This document shows, in pieces, positions 3,458-60,777 of a stretch of DNA of 64,000 bases. The DNA lies in assembly GCA_023259115.1 (NCBI GenBank), contig JAHFQW010000003.1:46346-110345 (forward strand). The letters are read 5' to 3'. The notes below the pieces were generated by a model. The model did no database searches, had not been told where the DNA came from, and saw only the letters and a program-made list of their open reading frames with translations. The DNA is from an archaeon (GTDB lineage: Archaea > Nanobdellota > Nanobdellia > Woesearchaeales > GW2011-AR9). How positions within the stretch are numbered: the first letter of the stretch is position 1; every line of letters begins with the position of its first letter. The position numbers and the translations under genes were made by a program.

Positions 3458-3531
3458 TATTAATGGAATATTAGTGCTAAAAAAATAGGAATAATAGAAT
3501 TACGATTAATTATAATAACGAGAGAATATAC

Positions 3532-4887: not shown

Positions 4888-4952
4888 TTTTTTGAGAGAG
4901 AGACATTTTTTAATGCTTTTGGGGGTTGATGAGAGAAAGAGAGAAAATATAT

Positions 4953-13679: not shown

Positions 13680-14354
13680 ATGATTCCAAGAGGATCGGTG
13701 TTAGTAAATACGAGTTATATTCAATTCAAAAAAAGCGATAATTATTTTAAATGGGCAAGATTTGGTGAATGTATGGATATCACACAAGCATTTTTATCTG
13801 GAATAAAAGATTGTGAAGAATTTCCTGAAGCATTGGAAATAGTTAAAGGAAATTCTTCTGGAAAAATTTGGCTTATTGGAGGATTTGTTTATAGAACGAT
13901 AGCAAGTCAATTATACGGATTGCCAAAACCAGAAGTAGATTTGGATTTTGTTGTAGAATATCCTGTATCGGATTTTAATTTACCTTCTGGTTGGAGAGCT
14001 GATAAAAATAGATTTAGCAATCCAAAATTAGTGAATGGCAAAAAGCAAATAGATTATGTTCATTTAGGAAATATTTACTCAATTCTCCAAAGACAGATTG
14101 AACCTACGATTGAAATTTTTTTGACAGGTGTTCCTTTAACAGTTCAATCTGTTGCTTATGATGTTAATGAAAATAGAGTCATTGGAGAAATTGGGATTGA
14201 TGCTTTACAAAGAAGAGTTGTTGAAGTAAATGATTTGCTTTTTGCCGAATATGCTGCAAAAAAGAAAAACAAATCCCTCCACGAAATGATACAAGAGAAA
14301 GCTGATGGATTAGGATTTACGCCAATTTTTCCTGAACGCAAATCTTGCCCTTAA
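13680..14354 (+). CDS. Putative nucleotidyltransferase-fold protein
   Basis: LIGGFVYRTIAS...EVDLDFVV resembles a pol-beta-type NTase GG...DxD core. Weak. Confidence 0.3.
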   Translation: MIPRGSVLVNTSYIQFKKSDNYFKWARFGECMDITQAFLSGIKDCEEFPEALEIVKGNSSGKIWLIGGFVYRTIASQLYGLPKPEVDLDFVVEYPVSDFNLPSGWRADKNRFSNPKLVNGKKQIDYVHLGNIYSILQRQIEPTIEIFLTGVPLTVQSVAYDVNENRVIGEIGIDALQRRVVEVNDLLFAEYAAKKKNKSLHEMIQEKADGLGFTPIFPERKSCP

Positions 14355-19168: not shown

Positions 19169-20236
19169 TCAATATTCGGTTAATTTCTTATTGGAATTAT
19201 AGGTAACAATTGTACTATTTCCTTCTTTGCCCGTGGTTTTTTCTGTGTTGATGAATTTGGCTTCGGTTAGTTTAAGAATACGGCGCTGGAAGCTTTTGTA
19301 ACTCAGAAGGTTGCCTTGTTCGAGGTAGTGGGTGTAGAGTTCGCCTATTTTTTGACCGCTTTTTTCACGAATGAGGTCAAGAATGTTTTTGAGATCGTCA
19401 TCAAGTGTTTCGGTGGGGTTGATATGAAATTCATCCACTTTTTTCATGGCGCCAGCAACGTGCTGCAGGGTGATTTTACGGGAGCTTTGGTCTTCCGCAA
19501 GAGAACCGGCTTCGCGCATGAGATACAAACCAATACGAACGTCTTTGAGTTCGGTGCAGCGCTCAACTATTTCTTTGAAGGCGTCATTGTCCCAGCAGTC
19601 TTGCACAAAGGCGTAGTCGCGGCGTTGTTTGAGAATGGAGGCGATTTCTGATTCGTTGTAGGGGCGAAAGATGAGAAATTCCGGAGAGAGACGGGAGCGG
19701 ATACGTTCATCTAATTCAGAATAACTATCGCGGTAGTTTGTGATTAGGAAGATAGATTTGCGATAGATGTCTTCTAAGAGGGCGTAGAGAAAATCGGTTT
19801 CTTCAAGTTTATCTACTTCGTCAAAGATGAAGACGACAGATGTTTTGTTGAGTTTGGTTTTAATTAGATCGAGAAGTTCGGTTGTGCGTTTGTTTTGCAG
19901 AAATTTGAAGCCAAGATCATCACATAATTTGGAGTAAATTTTGAAGGAGGTGTTTTCTTTCCAGCAGTTGATATAGAGAGGTGTGACATCTTGAGTGGTT
20001 TCTTCTAATTCTCGCAGAACGTGTTTACAAGCCGTGGTTTTACCAATACCAGGAGGGCCGGAAATGAAGAGATTTCTTCCGGGCAGACTTTGCAGAAGGG
20101 GTTTTATGGCAACGGCGAAGCGTTGTTGTTCGTTTTCTCGGGCGAATAAGATTTTTGGCTGGAAATCGTAGCTGAGAAAGAGGGTATCGCGAAAAAGAGA
20201 TTCACCAGATTTGAGCATATCTTTGAAGAGAGACAT
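19169..20236 (-). CDS. Orc1/Cdc6 replication initiator
   Basis: AAA+ Walker A ISGPPGIGKTTACKHVLREL; Walker B IFDEVD; C-terminal winged helix; N-terminal ...RENEQQRF typical of Cdc6. Confidence 0.85.
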   Translation of the reverse strand: MSLFKDMLKSGESLFRDTLFLSYDFQPKILFARENEQQRFAVAIKPLLQSLPGRNLFISGPPGIGKTTACKHVLRELEETTQDVTPLYINCWKENTSFKIYSKLCDDLGFKFLQNKRTTELLDLIKTKLNKTSVVFIFDEVDKLEETDFLYALLEDIYRKSIFLITNYRDSYSELDERIRSRLSPEFLIFRPYNESEIASILKQRRDYAFVQDCWDNDAFKEIVERCTELKDVRIGLYLMREAGSLAEDQSSRKITLQHVAGAMKKVDEFHINPTETLDDDLKNILDLIREKSGQKIGELYTHYLEQGNLLSYKSFQRRILKLTEAKFINTEKTTGKEGNSTIVTYNSNKKLTEY

Positions 20237-23550: not shown

Positions 23551-23725
23551 TTGTTATACGCAATTCAAAAAATACTTTTCTAACGGATAATAATGGAGAT
23601 AGGCTTTCAAAACATAGATAAATTTGATTTTTTCTTTTATTTTTAGAGGGGGATAAAATGTGTTTTCTTCATTTCATTCCAAAAACGTACTTATTTATAA
23701 ACTTTTAATTATTAAGGATTATATT

Positions 23726-24292
23726 ATGAGAAAACTAATCATGTGGAACGTAATCACTCTCGATGGATACTTCGAGGGTGAGAAAAATTGGGACTTGAGT
23801 TTTCATGAACTTGTCTGGGGCAAGGAGCTTGAGGAGTTAAGCCTCATCCAGTTAAAATCAGCCGACATGCTTGTGTTTGGTTCGACGACATACAAAGGCA
23901 TGGCAGATTATTGGTCAAAGGCAGAAGGGGCAGAAGGAGAAATCGCCAAATTCATGAATGGGATTCAAAAGGTCGTCTGTTCATCAACACTCAAAACTGC
24001 CGACTGGAACAACACATTAATTGTAAAAGATGCTGTGGCTGAAATTCCTAAATTGAAACAGCAAGGCAACGGAGATATGTTTGTGTTTGGCAGCGGTAAA
24101 CTCTCGAAGTCCTTGATGAAAGCAGAGCTGTTTGATGAATTTCGTTTATGTATTGCACCATTATTTTTGGGAAAGGGGAAACTGTTGTTCAATCAAGGTA
24201 TCCCCCATAAAAAACTTAAACTACTTGAAACACGTCCACTTGTTACGGGAGGTATCATCCTTCGGTATGCTCCAGATGGAAAAACTGAATGA
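23726..24292 (+). CDS. Dihydrofolate-reductase-like protein (RibD C-terminal domain family)
   Basis: MRKLIMWNVITLDGYF... start and LVFGSTTY / FVFGSGKL motifs typical of the RibD_C / YwjB family. Start trimmed to the M at 23726. Confidence 0.6.
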   Translation: MRKLIMWNVITLDGYFEGEKNWDLSFHELVWGKELEELSLIQLKSADMLVFGSTTYKGMADYWSKAEGAEGEIAKFMNGIQKVVCSSTLKTADWNNTLIVKDAVAEIPKLKQQGNGDMFVFGSGKLSKSLMKAELFDEFRLCIAPLFLGKGKLLFNQGIPHKKLKLLETRPLVTGGIILRYAPDGKTE

Positions 24293-25623: not shown

Positions 25624-25932
25624 ATGAAAATTCCTAAGACAATGAAGAGATATTGTAAGTATTGTAAGAAGCATACGGAGCAAAAAGTTGCTCAAAATAA
25701 AAAGAAAGCAGCAAGTTCATTGAGTTATGGTTCAAAGATTCGCGCACGGTTACGAGGACGGGCACGAGGTGTGGGTAATTTAGGACGTTATTCAAAACCG
25801 GCGGTCACAAAGTTTAAACGAACGGGTGCGAAAAATACGAAAAAAACAGATTTACGTTATACTTGTTCAGTGTGTAAGAAGATGAGTAGTCAACCAGAAG
25901 GAATCCGTGCGAAGCGGGTGGAGTTTGTCTAA
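25624..25932 (+). CDS. rpl44e: Ribosomal protein L44e
   Basis: KIPKTMKRYCKYCKKHTEQK...CSVCKK zinc-ribbon L44e signature. Confidence 0.9.
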   Translation: MKIPKTMKRYCKYCKKHTEQKVAQNKKKAASSLSYGSKIRARLRGRARGVGNLGRYSKPAVTKFKRTGAKNTKKTDLRYTCSVCKKMSSQPEGIRAKRVEFV

Positions 25933-25933
25933 G

Positions 25934-26116
25934 ATGAAAGATAGAACGTTACGAAGCAAATTCATTAAAGTGCGCTGTTCTAAGTGTAAGAATGAGCAGA
26001 TTATTTTTGGTAATGCGAGTACGATTGTACCTTGTTTAGTGTGCAATAAAGAAGTGGCATATCCTACGGGTGGAAAGTCACGCATTTCGGCGCGCGTTCT
26101 TGAGATTTTGGAATAA
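25934..26116 (+). CDS. rps27e: Ribosomal protein S27e
   Basis: FIKVRCSKCKNEQIIFGNASTIVPCLVCNKEVAYPTGGKSRIS zinc-ribbon S27e. Start set to MKDRTL immediately after the L44e stop. Confidence 0.85.
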   Translation: MKDRTLRSKFIKVRCSKCKNEQIIFGNASTIVPCLVCNKEVAYPTGGKSRISARVLEILE

Positions 26117-26322: not shown

Positions 26323-26359
26323 AAAACATTTATAAATGAACCATCGTACGAGAAGTAAT

Positions 26360-27139
26360 ATGCTCTATAAACGAAAAGGATTGCCGGAAGTGGATGAGAT
26401 TGTTCTTTGTAAAGTGAGCAAGATTTTTCCCAACGCGGTTTTTGTTGATTTGTTGGAATATGCGGATTCGGGAATTGTTCATATTTCAGAAGTAAGCCCG
26501 GGACGAATTAGAAATTTACGAGATTATGTTTCGGTGGATAGACAAATTGTATGTAAAGTGTTGCGTATTGATTATACAAATAGACATATTGATTTATCTT
26601 TACGAAGGGTTAATTCTACAGAGAGACAACAGAAGCTTGAGGATATTAAACAGGAGTTGAAAGCGGAGCTGCTAATCAAAAATATTGCAACCAAACTGCA
26701 TTTAGAGATGGAGAAGTTGTATGCGGAGGTTGCACCTAAAATTCTGAAAGAATATCAGTTTATGTACTTAGCGTTTAAAGAAGTGGTGAGTGGGGAGTTA
26801 AATTTAGAGAAGTTAGGAATTGAGAAGAAGGTGGCACAAGAGATATCTGATGCAGTGGTAGATAAGTTTAAGCCGAAAAAGATTATGATTAAGAGTTTAG
26901 TGACATTACAGACGTATGCAACGGATGGGGTTGAGAAGATTAAGAAAGTGCTTGCGGAAATTGAAAAAATTTCTCCCACGGTGCATTTATTATACTTAGG
27001 AGGGGGACGGTTTAAAGTGGATATTGAGGATATTGATTATAAACCAGCAGAGAAGAATTTAAAACGCATTCAAGAGATTCTAGACAAGTTTACGGATAAG
27101 TTATCAATAGCAACATTGGAGAGAGAAGGGACGGAATAG
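26360..27139 (+). CDS. Translation initiation factor 2 alpha subunit
   Basis: S1 domain (LPEVDEIVLCKV...GIVHISEV) followed by the aIF2-alpha core. Start trimmed to MLYKRKG, 24 nt after TTTATAAAT at 26328. Confidence 0.85.
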   Translation: MLYKRKGLPEVDEIVLCKVSKIFPNAVFVDLLEYADSGIVHISEVSPGRIRNLRDYVSVDRQIVCKVLRIDYTNRHIDLSLRRVNSTERQQKLEDIKQELKAELLIKNIATKLHLEMEKLYAEVAPKILKEYQFMYLAFKEVVSGELNLEKLGIEKKVAQEISDAVVDKFKPKKIMIKSLVTLQTYATDGVEKIKKVLAEIEKISPTVHLLYLGGGRFKVDIEDIDYKPAEKNLKRIQEILDKFTDKLSIATLEREGTE

Positions 27140-40965: not shown

Positions 40966-41682
40966 TTATTTATTGGTTATGCTGACAATTTTTCCATCAC
41001 GAAGGGAAATAGTTCGCTGGGCATGACGAACTAATGATTGGTCGTGCGTGACTAAGATTATGGTTTTTTTTTCTTTTTCGTGCAAGGTGGTTAAGAGTTC
41101 CATGATTTGTTTACCGGATTGGGAATCGAGGTTGCCAGTTGGTTCATCAGCTAAGATTATCTCGGGATTGTTTACTAACGCTCGAGCAATGGCAACACGC
41201 TGCTGCTGGCCACCAGATAATTCGTTGGGACGATGATGCATTCTATCGGCTAATCCCACAAGGGCGAGTAATTCTTTGGCACGCTCGATACGTTGTGTTT
41301 GGGGAACATTTTGAAAAATGGTTGGGAGGATGACATTTTCGAGGGCACTGAGAGTGTGGATGAGGTTGAATTGTTGGAAAACAAAGCCAATTTTTTTTCC
41401 ACGTAATTGAGCCAGAGCCGATTCGGAGAGATGACTGAGGTCTTTTTTTTCAAGCAGGATATGACCGCGAGTGGGAATGTCGAGAATGCCGACAAGATTC
41501 ATTAACGTTGATTTACCGCTTCCAGAGGGGCCTAAGATTGTGACAAATTCTCCTTTATAAATTGATACAGAGACGCCTCTGAGTACATCAAGTGATTCCG
41601 AACCCATTTGGTAGGTTTTCCAAACATCTTGTAACTCGAGGAGGATTTCTTTTTTGGGGAAATGGGTTTTTGCAGAGTTCAT
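40966..41682 (-). CDS. ABC transporter ATP-binding protein (MacB/LolD family)
   Basis: Walker [10 protein letters not shown]; signature [15 protein letters not shown]; Walker [12 protein letters not shown]. Confidence 0.85.
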
Positions 41683-41772
41683 GTTGAATTCTATTTTTCT
41701 ATTTGAGTATATTAATATTTAACGAATTGTGAGGATTATTCAAAGTTCTCTATAAATATTTATTCTAAATAT

Positions 41773-42990
41773 TCATTCGTACCTCAAACTATCTATAGCA
41801 TTGAGTTTAGAGGCTTTGCGAGCAGGGGTGAAGCCGGATATGCAGCCAATGATGAATGAGAAAAAGATGATGGCGAGCAGTTGTGTCCATTGAAATTGGA
41901 TGACAAGTAGTGATCCGATAAATTGGCTAAATATATATTCAATGATTTTGGCAAAGAGCATGCCTATGAGAACTCCGAGAATACCACCAATAAGACCATA
42001 TAAGCCTGATTCAATTAGAAATAAAGTTAAGATTTGCCGGTTGGTGGCGCCGATGGCTTTAAACAGGCCAATTTCTTTGGTGCGCTGCAGAACGGCGGTG
42101 AACATGGTGTTCATGATACCAATACCTCCGACAAAGAGAGAAATGGCGGCGATGCCTATGAGTACAACTTGGACGATGTTAAGAACGGTGTCAAAAGTAG
42201 AGACGAGTTGCTGGGGTGTTTGAATACTGAAGTCTTCTTTATCTTCTTTGAGGTGACGCGATTTGCGAAGTTCTTTTTTTATTTTTGCGTCCATGAGATT
42301 AAGGTCTTCTCCGGGATTGATTTGGACGAAAATAAGACCTAACTCATTGTTTTTTTGAAATAATTCTTGATAGGTGTCTATTGGAATGATGGCGGATTTA
42401 TCATCTTGGGGAGAGCCGGTTTTTTGCCAGAAGCCAATTATTTTGAATTCGTGTTCTTTAATGAGGATTTTATTTCCCAACGAGATATCTTTACCAAAGA
42501 GGTCGGGATTGGTATATTCACTGCCTAGAACGACTTTATAACGATCCCCGGAGGCAATATTACGTCCTTGGGCAATTTTATAACTTTGAGCACTGTTAAT
42601 GAGAGTATTTTCCTCTTTGTTGGTGGGAAAACCGTCTACAAAAAAGTAGCGTGCCTCGTTGTTGAATTCGATTTTACTGCTGCTGTATAAGAAGCCGGCG
42701 GCTTGTTTTACTCCGGATACTTTGCGGATAACATCCATGTCATGGGTGGTTATTTTTATCGCGTCAATGGAGAGACCGGCTGTGAGAGGATTTCCTTTGG
42801 CGGTGATGATTAATTTGTCGTTGCCTAATGCGGAAACTTGGCCGGTGATGGCTTGTTGAAGGCCTTGGCCAAGATTGATTAAAGAAACAACGGAGGCAAT
42901 GCCTATAATGATCCCAAAGAGAGTGAGAAGGGAGCGAAGTTTACGATTATGCATCTCTTTCCAGGGGATGAGGAAGTAGTCTTTGATCAT
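41773..42990 (-). CDS. ABC transporter permease, FtsX / MacB-like
   Basis: N-terminal TM helix, large extracytoplasmic domain, C-terminal 3-TM FtsX domain (QRTKEIGLFKAIGAT). Confidence 0.8.
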   Translation of the reverse strand: MIKDYFLIPWKEMHNRKLRSLLTLFGIIIGIASVVSLINLGQGLQQAITGQVSALGNDKLIITAKGNPLTAGLSIDAIKITTHDMDVIRKVSGVKQAAGFLYSSSKIEFNNEARYFFVDGFPTNKEENTLINSAQSYKIAQGRNIASGDRYKVVLGSEYTNPDLFGKDISLGNKILIKEHEFKIIGFWQKTGSPQDDKSAIIPIDTYQELFQKNNELGLIFVQINPGEDLNLMDAKIKKELRKSRHLKEDKEDFSIQTPQQLVSTFDTVLNIVQVVLIGIAAISLFVGGIGIMNTMFTAVLQRTKEIGLFKAIGATNRQILTLFLIESGLYGLIGGILGVLIGMLFAKIIEYIFSQFIGSLLVIQFQWTQLLAIIFFSFIIGCISGFTPARKASKLNAIDSLRYE

Positions 42991-43066
42991 GTGGTTTATG
43001 GTCTGTTGTTTTTTTTATGATTAGTTTTATTATATTATGATGATATCGTGATGATATTTTACGATA

Positions 43067-44278
43067 TTACTTACGCAAGGCATCGATGACTTGGAGTTGC
43101 GCGGCTTGTTTAGCAGGGAGAACACCGGAGATAATCCCCACACTAAATGAGAATAATAGGGCGGAGAGAAGCAGCCAGGAGGATATTTCGGCGTGGATTA
43201 AGACTGATTCAAATATTTGATAGGTGATAAATTCGACTAGTTTACTGATGAGGATACCTAGAGTTACGCCGATGATACCTCCTAAAAGACCAAGCATGCC
43301 GGATTCTATGAGGAAGAGGATAAGAATTTCTCGACGTGTGGCGCCGATGGCTTTGAGCAGGCCGATTTCTTTGGTGCGTTCTAACACGGCGGTGTACATG
43401 GTGTTCATGATGCCAACGCCTCCAACAAGTAAAGAGATACTGGCGATGCCTATGAGAACTCCTTCGATTATGAGAAGAATGGTATTAAATGTGGCAATAA
43501 GAGTTTGCGGAGTTTGAATGATGAAATCTTCTTTGCTCTTCTCTACATTACGGGATTTACGTAGTTCTTTTTTAAGTGAATCGGCAACGCTTGCAAGATC
43601 GGCGCTTTTTTGAATGCGAATGGCAATAATATCATAATCATCTTTAATTCCAAGCAGAGAACGGTAAGATTCCTCGGGAATAACGAGGGTGTCATCACGC
43701 TGGGGATTACCTGATTTTTTTAAAATGCCCACAATAGTAAATTGTTTTTGCTGGAGGAGAATTTTATCACGCAAAATGGGATCATGTTCAAAAAAGCCGT
43801 GCGCGAGATTATATCCTATTAAGACGCCAGGGCTGTTTTTTTCAGGAAATTTGCCTTCTTGAATTTGATAATCGTTTGCTTCGATTACGAGGTCTTGTTC
43901 TTGGGAATTTTCGGGATAAGAAACAGCATAGGTATATTTTTGTTCGTTTTTGAATTCTAATTGAGTTATACGAATTAGACGACCAACGGCGAGATCAACG
44001 TCTTTGGTTCTATCAATGGCGATTTTATCTTTTTTTGTGAGAGGAGACGCGACAGCCGTGCCAGGGGGGCCAAAGCCTGAACCTGCGGCTTGTACGATGA
44101 GCTTATCAGAGCCGAGTTTTAAGAATTGAGACGCGATGGCGTTTTGCAGGCCTTGGGAGAGGGTGATTAAAGCGACAACGGCAGCAATACCCACAAAGAT
44201 GCCAAGCATGGTGAGCCAGGAGCGCAGTTTACGTTGTTTGACACTGCGGTAAGCTAACTTGAAATAATCTTGTATCAT
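43067..44278 (-). CDS. ABC transporter permease, FtsX / MacB-like (second copy)
   Basis: Same architecture (ERTKEIGLLKAIGAT). Start trimmed to MIQDYFKLAYR to remove the run-on into the upstream gene. Confidence 0.75.
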   Translation of the reverse strand: MIQDYFKLAYRSVKQRKLRSWLTMLGIFVGIAAVVALITLSQGLQNAIASQFLKLGSDKLIVQAAGSGFGPPGTAVASPLTKKDKIAIDRTKDVDLAVGRLIRITQLEFKNEQKYTYAVSYPENSQEQDLVIEANDYQIQEGKFPEKNSPGVLIGYNLAHGFFEHDPILRDKILLQQKQFTIVGILKKSGNPQRDDTLVIPEESYRSLLGIKDDYDIIAIRIQKSADLASVADSLKKELRKSRNVEKSKEDFIIQTPQTLIATFNTILLIIEGVLIGIASISLLVGGVGIMNTMYTAVLERTKEIGLLKAIGATRREILILFLIESGMLGLLGGIIGVTLGILISKLVEFITYQIFESVLIHAEISSWLLLSALLFSFSVGIISGVLPAKQAAQLQVIDALRK

Positions 44279-44292
44279 TGATAGTTGAAGAT

Positions 44293-45543
44293 TTATTGAT
44301 ATTTGAGGATCTTTTTGAGAGTGAGGTTGTATTTTCTGTAGGCAACATAACCACCAATGGAGAGAAAGAGTATTACGATGTAGACCCACGTGTAATTGGT
44401 GGGAATTTTTCCGTATGTTTCAAGTTGAGAAGTGGTGTAGAGGTTCATGGTTAGGTCGAATTGCTGCTGGAACTGTTTGCCATTGGCATCAAAGTATTTG
44501 AGTTTAATGGGAAGATGAAGAAGCTTTGTGTTGGGAGTGATGTAGATTTCTAATTCTTCACTTTGGGTGTCGTCGGCATCGATATTTCCTATATAAAAAT
44601 AATCGTTGGGGGAGAGAAGAGTGTATTCGTCACTTGGTAGAACATATAGTTGTAGGTAACGAATGTCGGCGGTGCCGGGATTGGCGATTTCAATGGTGAT
44701 TTTACCGTTTTCTGCGGCTTGCAAAACGGAGGTTTTTTTAATGAAAGGTTGCACTTTTGGGATGTCACCTAAAGAGATGGCGAGAAGTTCTTGGGTTGTG
44801 AATAATTTACCTTTCTCGTCATAATAGCTGATTTCAAGAGGGACTTTGTATAGGCCGGCAGCGCCTTTGGGGTCGGCGATGAGATTGAAGGTGATGGCTT
44901 TTTGATAGCCAGAGGGTAACTGAGCGATAATTCTTTCTGAAGAGGATTGGTAGGGAGCGAAAGGAATGCCTGAAGAAGTGAGATTGAGTTTGAATTTTAA
45001 ATTGCGTAAGAGAGAATCTGCAAGATTTTTGATTGTTATGGTGGCTTGCGTTGATTCACCGGGTTTGATTTGTTCAGGATCAAAGGAGATAGAGGTAATA
45101 TCTAAAATGGAGTCTTGGGTTTGAATGTGGAGGAGAAATTCGTTGTTGGTGTAACTTATGCCGGATTCACCAAATTTTACGTTGAGTTCGAGTTCGAGAT
45201 CACCTTCGGTTGCTTGTTCATCTATTTTTAATTTGTATTCAACGATAATGGCATTAGCACCGGAGTTGAGGGCACGAAGTTTACCAATATTTTTTTGAGC
45301 AACATCGCCGTATAAACTCACGGGGTATTGCGGAAGAAGGGTGACTAGGGCATCGTTATTTGTCTCACTGCCATTATTCTCAATTTTGAATTTGACGGTG
45401 ACTATATCGCCAGGCTGTACGGGGTCGGGTGTTTGTGACATTAAGGTTACGTGAATACTAGGAGTTGAGGATGTGCCGTAGGCGGAAACGAGAGGAAATA
45501 TACAGAGAACGAGGAAAATGAAGAGGGGGAATTTTTTTGCCAT
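44293..45543 (-). CDS. Exported, C-terminally anchored protein; first gene of the ABC-transporter operon
   Basis: Signal peptide (LFIFLVLCIFPLVSAYG); beta-rich repeats; C-terminal TM helix (VYIVILFLSIGGYVAY). Confidence 0.35.
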   Translation of the reverse strand: MAKKFPLFIFLVLCIFPLVSAYGTSSTPSIHVTLMSQTPDPVQPGDIVTVKFKIENNGSETNNDALVTLLPQYPVSLYGDVAQKNIGKLRALNSGANAIIVEYKLKIDEQATEGDLELELNVKFGESGISYTNNEFLLHIQTQDSILDITSISFDPEQIKPGESTQATITIKNLADSLLRNLKFKLNLTSSGIPFAPYQSSSERIIAQLPSGYQKAITFNLIADPKGAAGLYKVPLEISYYDEKGKLFTTQELLAISLGDIPKVQPFIKKTSVLQAAENGKITIEIANPGTADIRYLQLYVLPSDEYTLLSPNDYFYIGNIDADDTQSEELEIYITPNTKLLHLPIKLKYFDANGKQFQQQFDLTMNLYTTSQLETYGKIPTNYTWVYIVILFLSIGGYVAYRKYNLTLKKILKYQ

Positions 45544-51652: not shown

Positions 51653-53407
51653 TTGCTGATGGCGTTTGATGAAAAATTACAGAGAGTATATAGGCAGAGA
51701 CGAGAGGAGGCGTGGTTGAAATCTCGTATGATTGAGGGGATACCAAGTTTGCAAGATGATTTTTCTGAAGTGAGACATTGCGTAGTTTCTTCTGAGGAAG
51801 GAATTGAGGCGTTAGTGGGAGATGCGCAAGTTATTTTGATGACGGGAGGATATTTTGGGGATGAAGCGAAAGGAAAATGGGGGAATGCGCTGGCAACAAA
51901 AGTGGACATGGTGGTGCGACCTAATTCGGGAGCAAATACGGGACGAACTATTTGTTACAAAGCAGAGAAGTTGAGTTTACATCTGGTACCAACGGGGTTG
52001 CTTGAAGGGATAAGAGCGATTATTGGATCTGAGACGGTTGGGGATCCGATTAGTTTAGATGAAGAGGAGTTGGCGTTATTTCGAGCGAGGGAAATTGATT
52101 ATAGTTTGCTGGAGGTGGGAAATTTTTTTATTACAACACCGTATCACCGCATTATGGATGTGCTGGGGAGCGCATTGAATGGTTCGACGGGAGTGGGGAT
52201 TATGCCAACGCATAAGTCTATTAAAGGAAAATCGTGTCCCAGACTAGATGATTTGTTTAATAGCTCTACTCATTTACGAAGAGTTCTTTCAAAAGATCAT
52301 GAGAATTATGAAGGCTTTTTGGAGACAAAATTATTGAATCGAGATATGGTAGTTGAGCGTCTTTTAGAAATACAACAACGAAATAGACGAATAGTGCCAG
52401 AGTATGTTTTAGAGTTTGCCAAGTCGCGTGAACCAATTGAATTTTTAAATGAGTTATACGCAGAAAGAGTAGTGAGAAATATACATTTTCCCAAACGGGT
52501 GGATGCGAGTTATGAAGTGAAGAGAGCGCTACAACGAGGAGAGCGGGTGTTATTAGAAGTGACACAGAGTTATCTCTTGAGCAATGCACGGCAACAAGGA
52601 TATCGCTATTCGACATCGGCAGATGTGACGGCGTTAGGGGCGTTGACGTCACTGGGGATTTCTCCGATGCGCTATTCTACGCGGGTGATTAATGTGAATA
52701 AGTTTCCTGGAGCGTCACGAGTGGGACCGGGAGATATTCCAGGTTCTTTTGTGGCACAAAATCATTTTGCGGAGAATAAGATTACGTCACTGAGCGAGTT
52801 AGGAGAGGCTTGTGTTGATTTTAATGCGATTTGTCAGATGTATTTTAGTGCGATTGGGAAGAATGGGATTTTGCAACCGGTTACCTATACAGATGCAACG
52901 GGAACGTATGAAATTGGAGAAGCGATGGCGATTGCCAATGCGCGTACGTTTGATGAGAGAGGAGCAACAACGGGCAAGCCACGGATTACGGGTTTATTTG
53001 ATTGTGTGTTGGGCAGACTCGTGGCAGAGGAACAAGGACCGTATACGGTTATTTCTTGCATGGATAGAGGAAATGTGTGTGACAAAGTGGGATTGGTGGT
53101 AGGGTATGTGGTGTCGTTACCAGAAGAGGTTGAGAGGATTGATTGTAATGGAATGATGTATACAACGGGCAAAGTGATTGTGCCTGGAGATCAAGTACCA
53201 ACAAGTGATGTACTGCAGTATTGTGTGCCAATTATTAAAGTGATGGAAGGTTGGAAGAGCACGCCACTTGGGAATTTGCATCCAGGAGAAGAGCTGCCTT
53301 TGGCAGTTTCTAGTGTTATTGGGGCAATTGAGAAATATACGGGATTTTTGGTTATGGCAATTGGAACGGGACCGGAAACCAATGAGGCGTTGTATTTGAA
53401 GCGGTAA
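51653..53407 (+). CDS. Adenylosuccinate-synthetase-like protein (divergent PurA family, 584 aa)
   Basis: GDEAKGKW (vs GDEGKGK); SGANTGRT in place of GGHNAGHT; NGSTGVGIMPTH (vs IGTTGRGIGPAY); GATTGKPRITGLFD (vs GATTGRRRRTGWLD); IGTGPETNE (vs ISTGPDRTE). Has an N-terminal extension and internal insertions. Confidence 0.55.
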   Translation: MLMAFDEKLQRVYRQRREEAWLKSRMIEGIPSLQDDFSEVRHCVVSSEEGIEALVGDAQVILMTGGYFGDEAKGKWGNALATKVDMVVRPNSGANTGRTICYKAEKLSLHLVPTGLLEGIRAIIGSETVGDPISLDEEELALFRAREIDYSLLEVGNFFITTPYHRIMDVLGSALNGSTGVGIMPTHKSIKGKSCPRLDDLFNSSTHLRRVLSKDHENYEGFLETKLLNRDMVVERLLEIQQRNRRIVPEYVLEFAKSREPIEFLNELYAERVVRNIHFPKRVDASYEVKRALQRGERVLLEVTQSYLLSNARQQGYRYSTSADVTALGALTSLGISPMRYSTRVINVNKFPGASRVGPGDIPGSFVAQNHFAENKITSLSELGEACVDFNAICQMYFSAIGKNGILQPVTYTDATGTYEIGEAMAIANARTFDERGATTGKPRITGLFDCVLGRLVAEEQGPYTVISCMDRGNVCDKVGLVVGYVVSLPEEVERIDCNGMMYTTGKVIVPGDQVPTSDVLQYCVPIIKVMEGWKSTPLGNLHPGEELPLAVSSVIGAIEKYTGFLVMAIGTGPETNEALYLKR

Positions 53408-54123: not shown

Positions 54124-54504
54124 TTATTTGATGGGGGCGGAGAGGTAATTATCATAGAAGACGTTGCGAATGTCTTTTTTGAGGTCGCGCGCGATGCCTT
54201 GGAACAGATTGGCATCAAGACGGCTTTTCTGGAATAAGGACATGCGAACTTTGGATTCGACTTCACGGCTGATTTTGTCCATTAATTTGGCAGGATCGTT
54301 GCCGCCTTTGCGGAGTTCTCGGCCAAGAATGCCATGCTGCTCTTTAAATGCGTCCATGAAGGAGGTGAGGAATTCGTTTTGGTATTTAGATACGCCAATG
54401 AAGTTGGATTCGTTACCGGTGATGACGATGTTTTTTCTTGATGCGCGATTGAACGATTTTAATAGGCTTAGTTCAAATTCGGTTAAGAACGATTGGGTTA
54501 TCAT
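54124..54504 (-). CDS. Hypothetical protein (126 aa)
   Basis: Clean ORF; no motif recognised. Confidence 0.35.
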   Translation of the reverse strand: MITQSFLTEFELSLLKSFNRASRKNIVITGNESNFIGVSKYQNEFLTSFMDAFKEQHGILGRELRKGGNDPAKLMDKISREVESKVRMSLFQKSRLDANLFQGIARDLKKDIRNVFYDNYLSAPIK

Positions 54505-54684: not shown

Positions 54685-55491
54685 ATGTGGGTTTACAATC
54701 TTGATCCGGTGCTTGTGCACTTAGGGCCAGTTGAAATACGATGGTATGGGTTAGTGTATGTGGCGGGGTTCTTTTTTGCAGTCTGGTGGTTGCATTATAT
54801 GGCGAAAAGAGGGCAAGTTGAGTTGAGCTCGGATGATATTTGGGATATGTTGTTTTATTTGATGATAGGGGTATTGATCGGTTCGCGGTTGTTTGAGGTG
54901 TTTTGGGAGCCGAGTTATTATTTGAGCAATCCGCTGCGATTTTTGAAGATTTGGGAAGGAGGGATGAGTTTTCATGGAGGATTTGTGGGGATTATTACGG
55001 CAACAGGGTGGTATTGTCGGAAGAAGAAGATGAATTTTTGGAAGATTGCGGATGCGATGAGTTTTCCAACTCTGTTGGCGTTGGCATTGGGACGGGTGGC
55101 AAATTTTGTTAATGGTGAATTAGTAGGACGAGTGTGGGGTGGTTCTTGGTGTGTGGTGTTTCCAGATTATGATATGCAATGTCGACATCCATCCATTTTA
55201 TATGCGGCGGGGCAGAGATTAGTTGTTGCGGTGTGGCTGGCATGGTTGACGGTGCGTTGGGAGTTTAGGGCAGGATTTATTTTTTGGAATTTTGTTTTGC
55301 TGGAAGGAATGGGTAGATTTATTATTGATTTTTGGCGAGAGGATACGTTGTATTATGGGTTTACGATGGGGCAGATATTTAGTGCGATGATGGTTGTTGT
55401 GGCGGTGTGGATGTTGGTTTTGAGGCATCGAGGGGATGTGAAGCGGTTGTTTTTGAATAGGAAAGAGCTTGAGAGATTAGAAGAAGCCTGA
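54685..55491 (+). CDS. lgt: Prolipoprotein diacylglyceryl transferase (bacterial Lgt)
   Basis: LGPVEIRWYGLVYVAGFFFAVWW (cf. IGPVALHWYGLMYLVGF); WEGGMSFHGG (identical to the E. coli WDGGMSFHGG core); GRVANFVNGELVGR; HPSILYAA (cf. HPSQLYE). Confidence 0.8.
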   Translation: MWVYNLDPVLVHLGPVEIRWYGLVYVAGFFFAVWWLHYMAKRGQVELSSDDIWDMLFYLMIGVLIGSRLFEVFWEPSYYLSNPLRFLKIWEGGMSFHGGFVGIITATGWYCRKKKMNFWKIADAMSFPTLLALALGRVANFVNGELVGRVWGGSWCVVFPDYDMQCRHPSILYAAGQRLVVAVWLAWLTVRWEFRAGFIFWNFVLLEGMGRFIIDFWREDTLYYGFTMGQIFSAMMVVVAVWMLVLRHRGDVKRLFLNRKELERLEEA

Positions 55492-55579: not shown

Positions 55580-57397
55580 TTGAGCATGGTTGATTTGGCA
55601 GGATTGATTGCATCTTACAACGGATTGGATTATGTGTATAGCGCAAAACCGGGAAAGTATACTTTTGTAGCGCCGAGTTCTTTTACAGAAAATGGTCTGA
55701 GGCAGAGAGGGGGGAGAGTTGTAGTTATAGAACAGGGAGAGAATTGTATTACTTCTCTGGTTATGGATAATGGGCATGGTTCAGCGATTATTACACCAAA
55801 TAATAAGGGGCAGACGTATATGGTATTGAGGTATGTACCTTATATTGTGAATATTGTTGAAAAAAAAGGAAAAAATGCGTCTTTACAAGAATGTAAAATA
55901 ATTCCCACAACGCTCTATGATGTGGAATTAGTCAAAGTGATAAGTGATGTAGGGGTTTTTGAAGAGCGGTGTGAAAAAGAGTTTGAACAGTGTACCTTTG
56001 CCGCGATGCGAAGTGGTTTTTTATCACAGTTATTATTACCTAAAACGAAGACAGCAACACTTTCAAGAAAAGTGGATCTGAATTCATTAGATTTGTTGAT
56101 GCAAGAAGCTCGGCGATATAAACTCTTAGATCATGAGCTGGAATTTATTGTTGGCCAACGGCGAGATTATGTGAAAAGAATGATGGACACAGCGCTGGCA
56201 AATTTAGTTTTTTTGCAAAAAGATACACCCCATTTTACGCAATTATGGGCAGATGTGAGAAGAGTATTAAGAGAAATACCTCTTCCTACGACACCAGATG
56301 AAATGAGGGAAGTTGAGAAGTATTACAAACCAGAAGTGAGACGCTATTTTGATCTAAAAGGAGCTACTTTTTTTACTGATGTGAAAGAGCATCGCTACAT
56401 TTTGAATTTATTTCTAGCATCAGAAGGCAGAGATATGAAGAGATTTGGTTCATTACAGTGGCAAGAAGAGGTGTATGGAGAGATAATACCATCGGTGCAA
56501 CACTATGTGGATAGCCAAAAAGCGATGTTTGAAGGGGGGGGAAAAACTCTCCCTGCAATACTCTTAGAGCAAACAAGATTATTAGATGTTTATCATCGCG
56601 CTAAAACACAATATCAAGAAATGATTAATCTTTTTGTAGCGCATAATATTCGTTTAGTGTTTAACCGAGCATTGCCGTTCATTAAGAAAGGAAAAGATAC
56701 GACGGAAGCAATGGCCAATGGCATGGTTGGCTTACGCAAGGCGGCGATGAAATATAAATGGGAGCGAGGGTATAAATTTTCAACCTATGCGGCGTGGTGG
56801 ATCAGACAAAATATTGATCGAGAAGATATGGATACAGGGGAGACGATTCGCAAGCCGGTGCATCTGCGTACGTTCTTAGATAAGTTGCATTATGTACAAG
56901 GAAGATTTTGGCAACAGCAATGCCGATATCCTACTTTGGAGGAATTAGCAGAAATAGTTGATGCGCCTGTACGCAGGATCAAACGGGCGTTAGAGAGTCC
57001 GGGTGAATGCCGATCACTCTATGATAAAGTGGGTGATCTAGATGATCGAGATGGAGCATCAGTTATTGATTTTATTGATGGAAGTGATGCAGAGCAGTTG
57101 AGAGGATTTGTACATGTGCCTTTAGATGTACATACGGCGGCTGAGGGAAGTAATATGGGTTTAAAAGTGCACCAGATGTTAATATTATTAACCCCTAGAG
57201 AGGAATCTGTGATACGCTATCGTTTCGGGATTGGTGTAGAAGAGAAGACACTTGAAGAGGTGGGACAGATGATGGGGCTTACGCGGGAGCGGATTAGACA
57301 AATTGAGATGATCGTAATTAAAAAATTAGGTAGGCGATTGGAGAGTAGAGGTATTACGGCGGATTATTTGGATAGAGAGAGGAATAAAGAGACTTGA
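55580..57397 (+). CDS. Sigma-70-family (primary-like) sigma factor with an approximately 350-aa N-terminal extension of unknown nature
   Basis: Region 2: NIRLVFNRALPFIKKGKDTTEAMANGMVGLRKAAMKYKWERGYKFSTYAAWWIRQNI (RGYKFSTYA[T/A]WWIRQ is the group 1/2 sigma hallmark). Region 3 start: IRKPVHL. Region 4.2: LLTPREESVIRYRFGIGVEEKTLEEVGQMMGLTRERIRQIEMIVIKKL. Confidence 0.75.
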   Translation: MSMVDLAGLIASYNGLDYVYSAKPGKYTFVAPSSFTENGLRQRGGRVVVIEQGENCITSLVMDNGHGSAIITPNNKGQTYMVLRYVPYIVNIVEKKGKNASLQECKIIPTTLYDVELVKVISDVGVFEERCEKEFEQCTFAAMRSGFLSQLLLPKTKTATLSRKVDLNSLDLLMQEARRYKLLDHELEFIVGQRRDYVKRMMDTALANLVFLQKDTPHFTQLWADVRRVLREIPLPTTPDEMREVEKYYKPEVRRYFDLKGATFFTDVKEHRYILNLFLASEGRDMKRFGSLQWQEEVYGEIIPSVQHYVDSQKAMFEGGGKTLPAILLEQTRLLDVYHRAKTQYQEMINLFVAHNIRLVFNRALPFIKKGKDTTEAMANGMVGLRKAAMKYKWERGYKFSTYAAWWIRQNIDREDMDTGETIRKPVHLRTFLDKLHYVQGRFWQQQCRYPTLEELAEIVDAPVRRIKRALESPGECRSLYDKVGDLDDRDGASVIDFIDGSDAEQLRGFVHVPLDVHTAAEGSNMGLKVHQMLILLTPREESVIRYRFGIGVEEKTLEEVGQMMGLTRERIRQIEMIVIKKLGRRLESRGITADYLDRERNKET

Positions 57398-57488: not shown

Positions 57489-57938
57489 ATGAAAAAAATA
57501 ATTTTAGGAATAACTTTGATGATGGTGTTGTTTGTGGCGGCGTGTAGTACACCGCAAGCAGAGACGACATCGAGTACGGTGCCCGTACAGAAAGCGGCAG
57601 TGCCTGCGACTCCAGCTGTTTCTGAGAATTCAAGCAATTTGGTGAGCGCGCCAGAATCAGCGAGTAGTGCTGAGGTGAAGAGCAATCCATCGACCACAAC
57701 GGTGAGTATTAAAGGGTTTAAGTTCCAACAAAACACGGTGGAAATTAACGCAGGAGATACTATTGAATGGGTAAATGAGGATAGTGCACCACATACGGTG
57801 ACTTTTGAGGATACGAATATTTTAGATGAGAAATTGTCTTCAAAGGGTAAAGTGAGCCACACGTTTACAGAGAAGGGAACGTTTGAATACCACTGTTCAT
57901 TTCATCCAAATATGAAAGGCATTGTTGTTGTGAAGTGA
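57489..57938 (+). CDS. Cupredoxin (plastocyanin/amicyanin-like blue copper protein) with a bacterial-type lipobox signal
   Basis: Signal ...VLFVAAC (lipobox VAAC); S/T/P linker; C-terminal copper site H(PHTVTF)...EYHCSFHPNMKGIVVV (His, Cys, His, Met). Confidence 0.7.
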   Translation: MKKIILGITLMMVLFVAACSTPQAETTSSTVPVQKAAVPATPAVSENSSNLVSAPESASSAEVKSNPSTTTVSIKGFKFQQNTVEINAGDTIEWVNEDSAPHTVTFEDTNILDEKLSSKGKVSHTFTEKGTFEYHCSFHPNMKGIVVVK

Positions 57939-58097: not shown

Positions 58098-58238
58098 TTA
58101 TAATCTTTTTTTCATTTTGGCTAAGAGGATATAATCTTCTTTTGTGCCACTGCCGCCTTTGCATTTGAGCTCGAGGGCAGCGACTTCGGCTTTGACATCT
58201 TTTAATCGTTTTTCAACGTCTTTTTTGCTCATGGTCAT
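58098..58238 (-). CDS. Small basic coiled protein (46 aa; absent from the ORF track)
   Basis: Hand translation: MTMSKKDVEKRLKDVKAEVAALELKCKGGSGTKEDYILLAKMKKRL, followed by the GTTATTCAAAGT-type 3' element. Function unknown. Confidence 0.3.
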   Translation of the reverse strand: MTMSKKDVEKRLKDVKAEVAALELKCKGGSGTKEDYILLAKMKKRL

Positions 58239-59013: not shown

Positions 59014-60777
59014 TTAGTTATAATACCATTTGTTTTCGACGCGTTGTTCACGATCTTTGACAGAGTCTGGTTTATTGACACGAGGGCGATGGGATAAGAG
59101 GTCTCGACGCAGAGTTATGTTGAGTTCTTGCAAGAAGAGGTTCATGCCATCAGCCATGCTAAATGGGCCGCGCAAGGTGCCACTCTTGGCAGGAATTCCT
59201 GTGAAGACCATGAGGCGATCAGAGAGGTAGTCGAGAAATAAGAGGTCGTGATCGACGACGAGAATGGTTAAGTCGCGTTCGTAGGCAATGTTTTTGATGA
59301 TTTTGGAGATTAAGAGACGTTGTTCAACGTCGAGATAGGCGGATGGTTCGTCTAATAGGAAGAGCTGTGCATCCTGGGATAAACAGTAGGCGATGGAAAC
59401 GCGCTGGAGTTGGCCGCCGGAGAGTTCGGATAATTTTTGAGCGAAGAGGGATTCGAGGTTTAATGGTTTTATGAGCTGGTTGGTGTATTTTTCGTTGGCG
59501 CGAGTGAGAAAGTCAGAGACGAGGACATCGGATTCGGTTTCTAGATATTGTGGTTTATATGCGACTTTGACTTCACAGCTGAGTTCGCCAGAATCGGGTT
59601 TGATCAAACCGGCGAGCATTTTGATGAATGAGGTTTTGCCAATACCATTTTCGCCTAAGATGCCGATGATTTCGTTTTTGTTGAGACTGCCAGATTCGCT
59701 GTTTAATGTGAAGTTGCCTAATTGTTTGTGGAGGTTATTCCAAGAAAGAAGAGGGGTGCGGATGCCTTTTTTGTTATCTAGGCCCTTATCAAAACTTATG
59801 GCGCGGTCACGAATGCGCATGTTTTCTTCTTTCAAAAAGCCCTCTAAGAACGCGTTGATGCCTTCGCGGCTGGTTTTGAGACCAGAGACGATACCAAAAG
59901 CGCCTTCGGCACCATACATGATGTTGATGACATCGGTCATGAAATCGAGAATGATTAAGTCGTGCTCAACGACGAGAGTGGCAACTTGGGGTGTTGTGAG
60001 ATTGCGAATGAATCGGGAAGTGTTGATGCGTTGTTTGATATCCAGAAATGAGGTTGGTTCGTCGAAGAGGTAGAGGTTAGCGGATTTGAGGGAGGCGGCG
60101 GCAATGGCGGCGCGTTGAAGTTCTCCGCCGGAGATGGTGGTGATGGGGTTGTCTAGAAAGTTTGTGAGTTGGAGCTGTTCACTGATTTTTTGGAGGTTAT
60201 TGTCTTTGTCGACTTTTTGGAGAAGTTCACGAACGGTGCCGGAGAATTGTTTAGGAATCAAATCAACTTGCTGGGGTTTATAGGAAAAGGTAATTTTATT
60301 TTGATGTAATTGTTCAATGAATTTTTGCATCTCGGTGCCTTTGAAGTAGGCGAGGATCTCTTTGAATTCAGGTGGTTTTTGCCAGTTGCCAAGATTAGGT
60401 TGAATGATGTTGGAGAGAACTTTAAATGCGGTGGATTTGCCTAACCCGTTTCTGCCAACGATGCCAGTTACTTGACCAAAGAGGGGAGTGGGGAGTGAGT
60501 AGAGTTCGAATAAATTTTCACCATAGCGATGCAGAGGAGAGCGGTTTAATGTTTCAGGGAGATTAATGATTTCAATGGCACCAAAAGGACAGCGTTTCGG
60601 ACAGATGCCACAGCCGGTGCAGAGGAATTCGTCGATTCTGGCTTTTGTGGTTATGGGGTCAGGGGTGATACAATCAACACCGGCGCGGTTGACAGGGCAT
60701 AATTTAGCACAGAGATAGTTGCCACATTCATTAGGATGGCATTTGTTGCGATCAATTATGGCTATACGTTTGCGCAT
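59014..60777 (-). CDS. abcE1: ABCE1 / RNase L inhibitor ribosome-recycling ATPase
   Basis: N-terminal twin 4Fe-4S domain (CHPNECGNYLCAKLCPV; CTGCGICPKRCPFGAIE) plus two ABC cassettes (GRNGLGKST / GENGIGKTS; LSGGELQR / LSGGQLQR). Start trimmed to MRKRIAIIDRNKC at 60777, removing an 84-aa spurious extension. Confidence 0.9.
   Translation of the reverse strand: MRKRIAIIDRNKCHPNECGNYLCAKLCPVNRAGVDCITPDPITTKARIDEFLCTGCGICPKRCPFGAIEIINLPETLNRSPLHRYGENLFELYSLPTPLFGQVTGIVGRNGLGKSTAFKVLSNIIQPNLGNWQKPPEFKEILAYFKGTEMQKFIEQLHQNKITFSYKPQQVDLIPKQFSGTVRELLQKVDKDNNLQKISEQLQLTNFLDNPITTISGGELQRAAIAAASLKSANLYLFDEPTSFLDIKQRINTSRFIRNLTTPQVATLVVEHDLIILDFMTDVINIMYGAEGAFGIVSGLKTSREGINAFLEGFLKEENMRIRDRAISFDKGLDNKKGIRTPLLSWNNLHKQLGNFTLNSESGSLNKNEIIGILGENGIGKTSFIKMLAGLIKPDSGELSCEVKVAYKPQYLETESDVLVSDFLTRANEKYTNQLIKPLNLESLFAQKLSELSGGQLQRVSIAYCLSQDAQLFLLDEPSAYLDVEQRLLISKIIKNIAYERDLTILVVDHDLLFLDYLSDRLMVFTGIPAKSGTLRGPFSMADGMNLFLQELNITLRRDLLSHRPRVNKPDSVKDREQRVENKWYYN

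Follow-up and report, generated by a model that had tools for sequence, protein, structure and literature searches.

A gene descended from a bacterial group-1/2 sigma-70 factor was analyzed in a 64,000-nucleotide stretch of a Woesearchaeota chromosome (contig JAHFQW010000003.1, positions 46,346 to 110,345; the whole stretch is hereafter called the window). In the sub-family to which its protein belongs, the predicted DNA-reading parts are strongly constrained, and no such constraint is seen in the signature of the surface through which docking on the bacterial beta-prime clamp mainly takes place. We tentatively interpret the protein, with confidence a little short of even, as a domesticated sigma-derived, sequence-specific DNA-binding factor that would no longer depend on a bacterial core RNA polymerase (RNAP), a mechanism that we infer from sequence comparison. 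Sigma factors are the hallmark of initiation by bacterial RNAP, and archaea use TATA-binding protein (TBP) and transcription factor B (TFB); why many Woesearchaeota keep a sigma-70 gene has only been flagged (PMC8204110). The sub-family may represent an evolutionary dissection of such a factor, with the DNA-reading elements held under constraint and the core-docking signature and the remainder free to change, a pattern that predicts DNA binding without the bacterial core as well as allele-specific protein partners.

The mechanical open reading frame (ORF) covers 55580-57397 on the plus strand, with a TTG start at 55580 and 605 aa, and the likely start is the ATG at 55586, according to the gene callers in public assemblies and the alignment of orthologs. 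Pfam analysis of the sigma protein returned Sigma70_r4 (4.1e-15; 55.5 bits, cut-off 24.1), r2 (7.5e-09; 35.7 bits, cut-off 24) and Sigma70_r3 (1.7e-06; 28.4 bits, cut-off 25.3), all of which exceed the gathering cut-offs, and TIGR02937 scored 62.8 bits (cut-off 42.9). The protein belongs to the sigma-70 superfamily, with the r2 and r4 domains present. Region 3, detected between regions 2 and 4 by Pfam Sigma70_r3, places it with the group 1/2 (RpoD-like) factors, and the top solved-structure match was RpoD (E=3.8e-41, residues 333-592); chance falls far short of explaining these matches. The sigma-70 family membership and group 1/2 ancestry that an earlier note on this stretch had proposed were thus upheld by the Pfam regions 2, 3 and 4 and the RpoD structure match, and both motifs quoted there were recovered, RGYKFSTYAAWWIRQNIDR at residues 394-412 and TLEEVGQMMGLTRERIRQIE at residues 555-574. 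Its wording of a primary-type, nearly textbook sigma holds for regions 2.3 and 4.2 only, and the RpoD equivalog cut-offs were missed (165 bits against 354 for RpoD_Cterm, TIGR02393; 178 against 555 for RpoD, NF004208). Nor does the gene show the housekeeping character of a primary sigma, being absent at the locus in sister genomes and fast evolving.

Conservation was measured over the positions invariant in 15 diverse bacterial RpoDs, as the fraction kept by four family members. This fraction was 0.30 in region 2.1 and 0.35 in region 2.2, 0.83 in region 2.3 and 0.46 in region 2.4, 0.36, 0.59 and 0.48 in regions 3.0, 3.1 and 3.2, and 0.75 and 0.80 in regions 4.1 and 4.2; P0031, a canonical Woesearchaeota RpoD, retains nearly all of the positions. 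Residue numbers are those of E. coli sigma-70, assigned from established knowledge. The determinants of -10 and -35 recognition (the region 2.3 aromatics, Q437, R441 and R584-Q589) are present, with RERIRQ invariant; Y430, W433, W434, Q437, R441, H455 and the whole R584-E591 helix are identical in all four members, and Y425 is Y in three of them and F in one. Lost from the family are Q406, E407 and N409 of region 2.2 together with most of region 2.1, T440 is replaced by D, E or Q, and where the core-docking motif DLIQEGNIGLMKA of region 2.2 would be expected the window protein has EAMANGMVGLRKA. Region 2.2 also holds family-specific residues, G408, G411 and K418 being invariant. Position 419 is Tyr in all four members and in P0031, giving a KYxW signature which, among 226 sigmas, is common only to the family and P0031.

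The N-terminal extension of about 350 aa had been described as lacking any recognisable domain, and the Pfam scan of this part indeed returned no match, but it contains a conserved all-beta domain, a motif resembling region 1.2 and a spacer. The N-terminal domain was modeled by AlphaFold2 (AF2) as all beta with a pLDDT of 77 (single-sequence AF2 of the whole protein was unusable, pLDDT 35), and fold searches with the domain model gave no significant match. Among 1.84 billion representative proteins the N-terminal 345 aa had only three real relatives, P0121, P0122 and P0125, all of which are sigma proteins of 648-664 aa. The motif at residues 168-194 is suggestive of region 1.2; Pfam Sigma70_r1_2 gave a sub-threshold match at the homologous place in the ortholog P0121 (E=0.014) and none in the window protein. 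The spacer lies between this motif and region 2, which is the position of the non-conserved region in group 1 sigmas, and the Pfam scan found no match to PF03979, the acidic helical N-terminal domain of region 1.1. Given the all-beta domain, the 1.2-like motif and the spacer, the extension is most simply a group-1-like front end in which region 1.1 would have been replaced by a new domain.

Homologs with conserved synteny, a question raised in the earlier note, were found in four further loci of related archaeal genomes. The common order in the sigma-bearing loci is a 125-126-aa hypothetical gene on the minus strand (hyp126), lgt, sigma, a 46-aa ORF on the minus strand and ABCE1, followed in the four aligned orthologs by GNAT and HDAC, and the gene directly after sigma varies (a cupredoxin in the window, an aminopeptidase in L011, none in L006 and L008). 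The fifth version of the sigma gene, in L021, was found by a metagenome scan with the hyp126 protein. The identity of hyp126 is 77-81% in sigma-bearing relatives and 61-69% in other relatives, among which L014 and L023 are demonstrably sigma-less. In the sister Woesearchaeota L014, L016, L017 and L023, lgt is followed directly by a lipobox cupredoxin with no sigma at the locus, and the ABCE1 of sigma-less sister Woesearchaeota is 73-79% identical to that of the window. Since the window sigma gene stands exactly between lgt and cupredoxin, which are adjacent in the sisters, it was inserted beside a pre-existing pair in one sub-lineage. Joint transfer of lgt and sigma as a bacterial block is ruled out because the sisters have the lgt-cupredoxin adjacency without sigma. 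Mobile-element insertion was likewise rejected for want of convincing flanking repeats, the only such pair, 24 nt long with a 79% match, falls in two stretches that code for hydrophobic sequence and is probably due to chance.

Upstream of the gene lies an element resembling the archaeal TATA box, AACTATTATAAA. All four orthologous loci in the alignment carry the sequence AAnTATTATAAA unchanged, 22-27 nt 5' of the ATG, and in L006 and L011 it falls within the 3' end of lgt. The element is regarded here as a putative archaeal promoter, and its sequence and position would imply a leaderless or near-leaderless transcript.

The host was assigned from its neighbouring genes. The best named relatives of the window ABCE1 are all 'Candidatus Woesearchaeota' or 'Nanoarchaeota', and the host is therefore a DPANN archaeon of the Woesearchaeota. 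That the replicon is archaeal, as previously noted, was confirmed by Orc1/Cdc6, PolB, aIF2-alpha, a Rad50-like SMC, ABCE1, L44e and S27e; the intron-bearing tRNA listed with them could not be reproduced, no tRNA or other Rfam family being detected in the window (ARAGORN, and Rfam with either the gathering cut-off or E<=0.01). As to a bacterial-type partner, another option of the earlier note, the scanned ORFs of the window included no gene for a bacterial core RNAP (rpoA/B/C), and DPANN genomes have been reported with archaeal RNAP, TBP and TFB (literature including PMC8204110). The plus strand of the window contains 26.1% G against 13.9% C, an extreme and uniform asymmetry, with a GC skew of +0.2 to +0.5 in nearly every 1-kb bin regardless of gene orientation; plus-strand genes have about 5% C and 32% G at third codon positions, and minus-strand genes show the reverse, with G at about 8%. 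The cumulative skew runs without turnover anywhere in the 64 kb, and amino-acid usage in the window also varies by strand. A strand disparity of equal size has been published for Microgenomates of the Candidate Phyla Radiation (PMC7143001), and we found no literature report of such a disparity for Woesearchaeota. Related loci have the opposite skew sign, which indicates that the window locus is inverted relative to them.

The sigma gene itself, with 7% C and 27% G at third positions and a skew of 0.59, is within the host range, and since it shares the host's depletion of C at third positions it is neither a mis-joined bacterial fragment nor a recent import. Two Logan assemblies from different runs are 99.96-99.98% identical to the window across lgt, sigma, cupredoxin and ABCE1, thereby covering both junctions. 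The probability that a bacterial fragment was mis-joined into an archaeal contig is accordingly next to nothing: we found no point in favour of such a chimera, and the junctions recurring in the two other assemblies, the synteny conserved in four further loci, the extreme strand-specific C3 depletion within the gene and the conserved TATA-box promoter element all speak against it. The misassembly that the earlier note had named as a refutation is thus rejected, as far as assemblies can show, by independent assemblies and host-like codon-position skew. Recent horizontal transfer, one of the options listed there, was ruled out by the host-like codon-position composition, the TATA box conserved in four loci and the presence of five gene versions, in two old classes, at one locus.

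The rate of change of the sigma gene differs from that of its surroundings. Identity between the window and its relatives is 79-80% for ABCE1, 71-72% for lgt, 77-81% for hyp126, 83-87% for the 46-aa ORF, 68% for GNAT and 66% for HDAC, against 29-37% for sigma (38-60% for regions 2-4 alone). Kimura distances within the sigma family are 0.8-1.1, compared with a median of 0.69 between RpoDs of different bacterial phyla. For the closest pair, L021 versus L008, the ratio of nonsynonymous to synonymous divergence (dN/dS) of sigma is 0.15-0.23 with dN 0.20-0.24, and that of ABCE1 is 0.04 with dN 0.026, so that sigma dN is about 9 times ABCE1 dN; hyp126 gave 0.03 with dN 0.036 (L021 versus L006), and lgt gave 0.06 and 0.13 with dN 0.06 and 0.13 (L021 versus L011 and L006, respectively), all these ratios being rough because dS is near saturation (about 1.0-1.3). 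Four of the five versions have an unbroken sigma ORF (603-664 aa) despite about 1 substitution per site. In the L021 allele (3064-4982, minus strand) the reading frame changes at a poly-A tract within the linker that follows the N-terminal domain, leaving the gene in two frames; this reflects either a real frameshift (a pseudogene or split gene) or a sequencing error. The dN/dS ratios indicate a sigma gene that is under selection, though far less constrained than its neighbours, and do not point to a neutral relic. A diversity-generating retroelement was ruled out by reasoning, as the divergence spans the whole 2-kb gene including synonymous sites and no short A-biased variable region is seen.

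Two classes of alleles were recognized. Allele P0121 was found on contigs L005, L006 and L007 and allele P0122 on L008, L009 and L010, the JGI metagenomes 3300000571 and 3300027835 each contain both alleles, and the two proteins are about 35% identical. Between L005/L006 and L008, 116 nt inside lgt are 100% identical and 3329 nt on the ABCE1 side are 99.97% identical, these flank values coming from short-read metagenome assemblies in which identity farther than a k-mer length from either junction could partly reflect collapsed paths; the 46-aa ORF has 90% nucleotide identity, and the sigma segment of about 2.2 kb has 31-62% nucleotide identity and no blastn match. Contig L019 ends at the exact point where the P0121 and P0122 haplotypes diverge. 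The quartet (window,P0121)|(P0122,P0125) was obtained in 1000/1000 bootstraps, for the N-terminal and sigma halves alike. The flanks group differently, the P0121 and P0122 genomes joining first, then that of P0125 and then that of the window, and this conflict between the allele quartet and the flank relationships indicates that the two allele classes are older than the species. The classes were either kept by selection or exchanged by recombination.

In the scheme we propose, a gene descended from a bacterial group-1/2 sigma-70 factor was inserted between lgt and the lipoprotein cupredoxin in one Woesearchaeota sub-lineage, and its own TATA box would most likely serve for its transcription by way of archaeal TBP and TFB. 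Selection has preserved the DNA-reading elements (in region 2.3 the aromatics for -10 melting and binding, in region 2.4 Q437 and R441, then H455 and the entire 4.2 recognition helix) and has relaxed on the residues of regions 2.1-2.2 through which bacterial sigmas engage the beta-prime clamp. The resulting sigma-derived factor could act as a regulator or DNA sensor without need for a bacterial core RNAP. Its N-terminal domain, spacer and regions 2.1-2.2 would engage fast-changing partners, its non-DNA-binding surfaces evolve very fast, and the two old allele classes appear to be kept or exchanged within and between species. The residency of the gene in the archaeal chromosome, its archaeal-type promoter element, the split in constraint, the fast evolution under purifying selection, the absence from the locus in sisters and the allele dimorphism are most simply fitted by a DNA-binding factor; the binding of DNA, the freedom from bacterial RNAP and whatever regulatory role the factor may have are inferred from this fit. 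Among the options of the earlier note, the repurposed DNA-binding regulator fits best, the DNA-contact motifs being kept and the 2.1-2.2 docking signature largely lost.

Several points weigh against a DNA-binding factor that acts without core RNAP. Free bacterial sigma-70 binds promoter DNA poorly without the core. That region 2.3 has kept its melting residues would be expected of a sigma still in service within a polymerase, the setting in which such residues are most naturally used, and the beta-flap-contacting residues of regions 4.1 and 4.2 are kept as well, though they also belong to the fold core. No target site came to light; sigma-70-type promoters are not enriched in the window (40 found, 40.1 expected), and TTGACA occurs 29 times against 45.8 +/- 6.1 expected, with 100/100 shuffles giving at least 29. 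The bearing of a bacterial-type RNAP was judged from 64 kb of genome, and the roughness of the dN/dS ratios and the short-read origin of the flank identities pull in the same direction. As an observation in its own right, the depletion of the canonical -35 hexamer in the window is mild.

The protein may instead be an initiation or accessory factor for the archaeal RNAP, with regions 2.1-2.2 and 4 remodelled for the archaeal clamp coiled-coil and flap, that directs or modulates transcription from some promoters in company with TBP/TFB. In favour of this, region 2.3 keeps its melting residues, which are best understood as part of a polymerase complex, the changes in region 2.2 follow a family pattern and are not random (G408, G411 and K418 invariant; Tyr 419), dN/dS of about 0.2 points to purifying selection, a putative archaeal promoter element lies upstream, and Castelle et al. 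leave the control of such sigmas open (PMC8204110). We consider this explanation rather unlikely, since regions 2.1-2.2 differ strongly between alleles with near-identical flanks and are hard to fit to one conserved RNAP surface, the gene is absent at the locus in sister lineages, and sigma-70-type promoter motifs show no enrichment. The loss of most of the region 2.2 docking signature, with the equivalents of Q406, E407 and N409 replaced, tells against a true sigma for a bacterial RNAP outside the archaeon, whether delivered as an effector to a host or prey or serving the RNAP of a partner or mobile element, by analogy with plastid sigmas. Such a role would suit the full region 2-3-4 architecture with intact -10/-35 determinants and the proposal that some Woesearchaeota are episymbionts of bacteria (PMC8204110); fast evolution and old allele classes resemble those of host-interaction genes, and the N-terminal domain could be a targeting module. 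It is improbable in our view, as the N-terminus MVDLAGLIASYNGL has no hydrophobic stretch of a signal peptide, judged by eye, no secretion-system gene is found among the neighbours scanned, and the beta-prime clamp helices are, by established knowledge, highly conserved among bacteria, so that adaptation to a host would need less variation.

The two deeply divergent alleles with near-identical flanks in the same metagenomes, in classes common to several species, are also what might be seen in a factor of conflict or defence, such as a sensor or decoy deployed between virus and host or between symbiont and host, the sigma fold then serving as a scaffold for DNA or protein recognition, as in MzaA of the Mza anti-phage system. 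MzaA is the best NCBIfam and PADLOC match (193 and 126 bits), gene content after sigma is variable (cupredoxin, aminopeptidase or none), and some close lineages have the gene where others lack it at the locus. The MzaA score is far under the 800-bit cut-off, P0031 scores higher against MzaA, the variable cassette is a single gene, and four nearby ORFs scanned gave no Mza partner and no other PADLOC match, on which ground a defence island or Mza system was ruled out; we give the conflict-type sensor or decoy a low probability. The broader proposition that the sigma module is a rapidly diversifying recognition factor under balancing selection, either as a factor that initiates or modulates archaeal RNAP transcription or as an effector or sensor in host/virus conflict, is unlikely but deserves some weight. 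That the gene is a decaying, functionless relic of an old bacterial transfer seems quite improbable: very fast evolution, the lost core-docking signature, the absence at the locus in sister lineages and the frameshift of the L021 version at a poly-A tract would all be expected of a relic, but four lineages retain unbroken ORFs (603-664 aa) after about 1 substitution per site, dN/dS is about 0.15-0.23, KFSTY, WWI, TRERIRQIE and FIASYxGL are perfectly conserved, and so is the TATA box. If the factor contacts archaeal or bacterial-host RNAP, it would bear on the mixing of transcription systems across domains and on DPANN symbiont-host interaction; if it is a co-opted recognition factor, in either form, it would be the first functional role of a sigma-70 module outside a bacterial-type holoenzyme. 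The features of the window that bear on the analysis are listed in Table 1.

Table 1. Coordinates of the sigma-70 family gene, its parts, its neighbours and the archaeal marker genes in the window
Feature	Position	Strand	Remarks
Sigma-70 family gene	55586..57397	+	603 aa + stop; identical to P0001 as called in independent assemblies
Archaeal TATA-box-like element AACTATTATAAA	55552..55563	+	centred ~27 nt upstream of ATG; putative promoter
Lineage-specific all-beta N-terminal domain	55586..55960	+	residues 1-~125; conserved motifs FIASYxGL and MDxGxxSA (alignment); AF2 model
Region-1.2-like motif LDLLMQEARRYKLLDHELEFIVGQRRD	56087..56167	+	residues 168-194; hhalign to RpoD region 1.2, E=5.5e-4, probability 30%; 33-61% identity among orthologs
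Poorly conserved spacer	56171..56590	+	residues 196-335; 17-28% identity among orthologs; no Pfam match
Sigma region 2	56636..56815	+	Pfam 351-410; 2.2 motif EAMANGMVGLRKA in place of DLIQEGNIGLMKA; 2.3/2.4 motif RGYKFSTYAAWWIRQNIDR kept
Sigma region 3	56882..57061	+	Pfam 433-492
Conserved family-specific insertion EQLRGFVHVP	57092..57121	+	between regions 3.2 and 4.1; four-way alignment; gap in hhalign vs RpoD
Sigma region 4	57188..57328	+	Pfam 535-581; 4.2 helix-turn-helix TRERIRQIE invariant in 4/4 aligned proteins
hyp126, conserved 126-aa hypothetical gene	54124..54504	-	divergent from lgt; lineage marker
lgt (prolipoprotein diacylglyceryl transferase)	54685..55491	+	directly upstream of sigma; Pfam LGT 1.2e-66, TIGR00544 above cut-off; conserved left flank
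Cupredoxin, signal peptide + lipobox (LFVAAC)	57489..57938	+	Pfam; directly after lgt in sigma-less relatives
46-aa ORF MTMSKKDVEKRLKDVKAEVAALELKCKGGSGTKEDYILLAKMKKRL	58098..58238	-	right of variable segment; no Pfam match
ABCE1/RLI	59014..60777	-	Pfam; archaeal marker; conserved right-hand flank
Rad50-like SMC	334-2745		listed among archaeal markers
Family-B DNA polymerase (PolB)	8825-11293		archaeal marker
Orc1/Cdc6	19169-20236		archaeal marker
L44e and S27e	25624-26116		archaeal markers
aIF2-alpha	26336-27139		archaeal marker

Other observations were made in the window. The 46-aa ORF, with its identity of 83-87% in sigma-bearing relatives, is 75% identical in L014 and is better conserved than most of its neighbours. 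An ORF with a BRO-N domain (17262-18098, minus strand), a domain associated with viruses and mobile elements, has a third-position skew of -0.31, opposite in sign to all of its neighbours, suggesting that it was recently acquired or inverted. A RibD_C-domain ORF (23660-24292, plus strand) has an atypical skew of 0.07 and a second ORF without Pfam match (13680-14354, plus strand) has GC3 0.18 and skew 0.20; these two are possibly recent arrivals or non-genes. The bacterial-type lgt is paired with a cupredoxin that carries a signal peptide and lipobox (LFVAAC in the window; AGC or VGC in relatives), and the same adjacency in sigma-less Woesearchaeota suggests a working bacterial-style lipoprotein pathway. 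An ABC ATPase and two MacB_PCD/FtsX permeases stand in a row at 40966-44389 (minus strand) and form a MacB/LolCDE-like transporter of bacterial type, which is possibly linked to the lipoprotein theme. The adenylosuccinate synthetase at 51653-53407 (plus strand) is unusually long (582-584 aa) and only 23-28% identical to the 437-505-aa enzymes that occupy this syntenic slot in L014, L017 and L021, suggesting that an enzyme of another type has taken over here.

Among known systems, plant plastid sigmas (SIG1-6) are nuclear-encoded, keep the core-docking region and have a bacterial-type partner polymerase. The window sigma resembles them in being group-1-like, in its long non-conserved N-terminal extension and in being encoded beside a non-bacterial RNAP that serves the genome's own genes; unlike them, it has to our knowledge no bacterial-type partner polymerase. 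With MzaA, its top match in NCBIfam and PADLOC, it shares a long chain in which the C-terminal module is RpoD-like and the N-terminal part is unrelated, but it scores 193 bits against a cut-off of 800 (NF041931) and the similarity is limited to the generic sigma module; as P0031 matches MzaA even better, the match is one of generic sigma similarity. Like bacterial RpoD/SigA and group 2 factors, the protein runs from a putative 1.2-like motif through a spacer to regions 2, 3 and 4 in succession, and it shares the -10 (YKFSTY..WWIRQ) and -35 (TRERIRQIE) determinants of RpoD, with about 41% identity over 250 aa. It differs from RpoD in the missed equivalog cut-offs, the lack of region 1.1, the largely lost 2.1-2.2 signature, the change at T440 and the FVHVP insertion, in a pace of evolution that, inside a single archaeal family, outstrips that of RpoD across bacterial phyla, and in having no bacterial core RNAP gene in the window.

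A GTDB genome scan with the sigma protein returned two bacterial RpoDs only and no close relative, and a profile search with the four-member alignment returned bacterial RpoDs only, without recovering the known members. The canonical-looking Woesearchaeota RpoD P0031 (798 aa; L013, 3809-6205) lies beside a tRNA-splicing endonuclease, an archaeal histone and Hjc, matches its own contig in composition, passes the RpoD_Cterm cut-off (374.5 versus 354 bits) and keeps the region 2.2 motif; the window sub-family is far more divergent. P0031 also carries a C-terminal extension of about 330 aa, and its core-docking residues are conserved though the gene is compositionally native to an archaeal contig. 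In a neighbour-joining tree the sub-family was joined to P0031 in only 2/300 bootstraps, and in the neighbouring long-branch group the two members checked, P0195 (a close relative of P0194) and P0211, lie on bacterial contigs; the grouping is probably due to long-branch attraction.

Sigma-70 genes (fam00359) were reported by Castelle et al. (2021) in DPANN archaea, with particular prevalence in Woesearchaeota; mis-binning was ruled out, no anti-sigma factors were found, and the mechanism by which these sigmas are controlled, if they regulate transcription, was left open (PMC8204110). The bare presence of a sigma-70 gene in an archaeal chromosome is therefore already known, and its novelty had been overstated in the earlier note. 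Like fam00359, the window gene encodes a bacterial sigma-70 protein on a Woesearchaeota contig among archaeal informational genes, with no anti-sigma factor nearby, a likeness drawn from the published description and the Woesearchaeota markers of the contig, not from clustering with fam00359 sequences. That report is one of presence only; the window sub-family has in addition a beta domain of its own at the N-terminus, a fixed locus between lgt and cupredoxin, and two old allele classes. What appears to be new, by the available literature, is a sigma-70 sub-family with its own N-terminal domain, its insertion site, the split between DNA reading and core docking, and the allele dimorphism.

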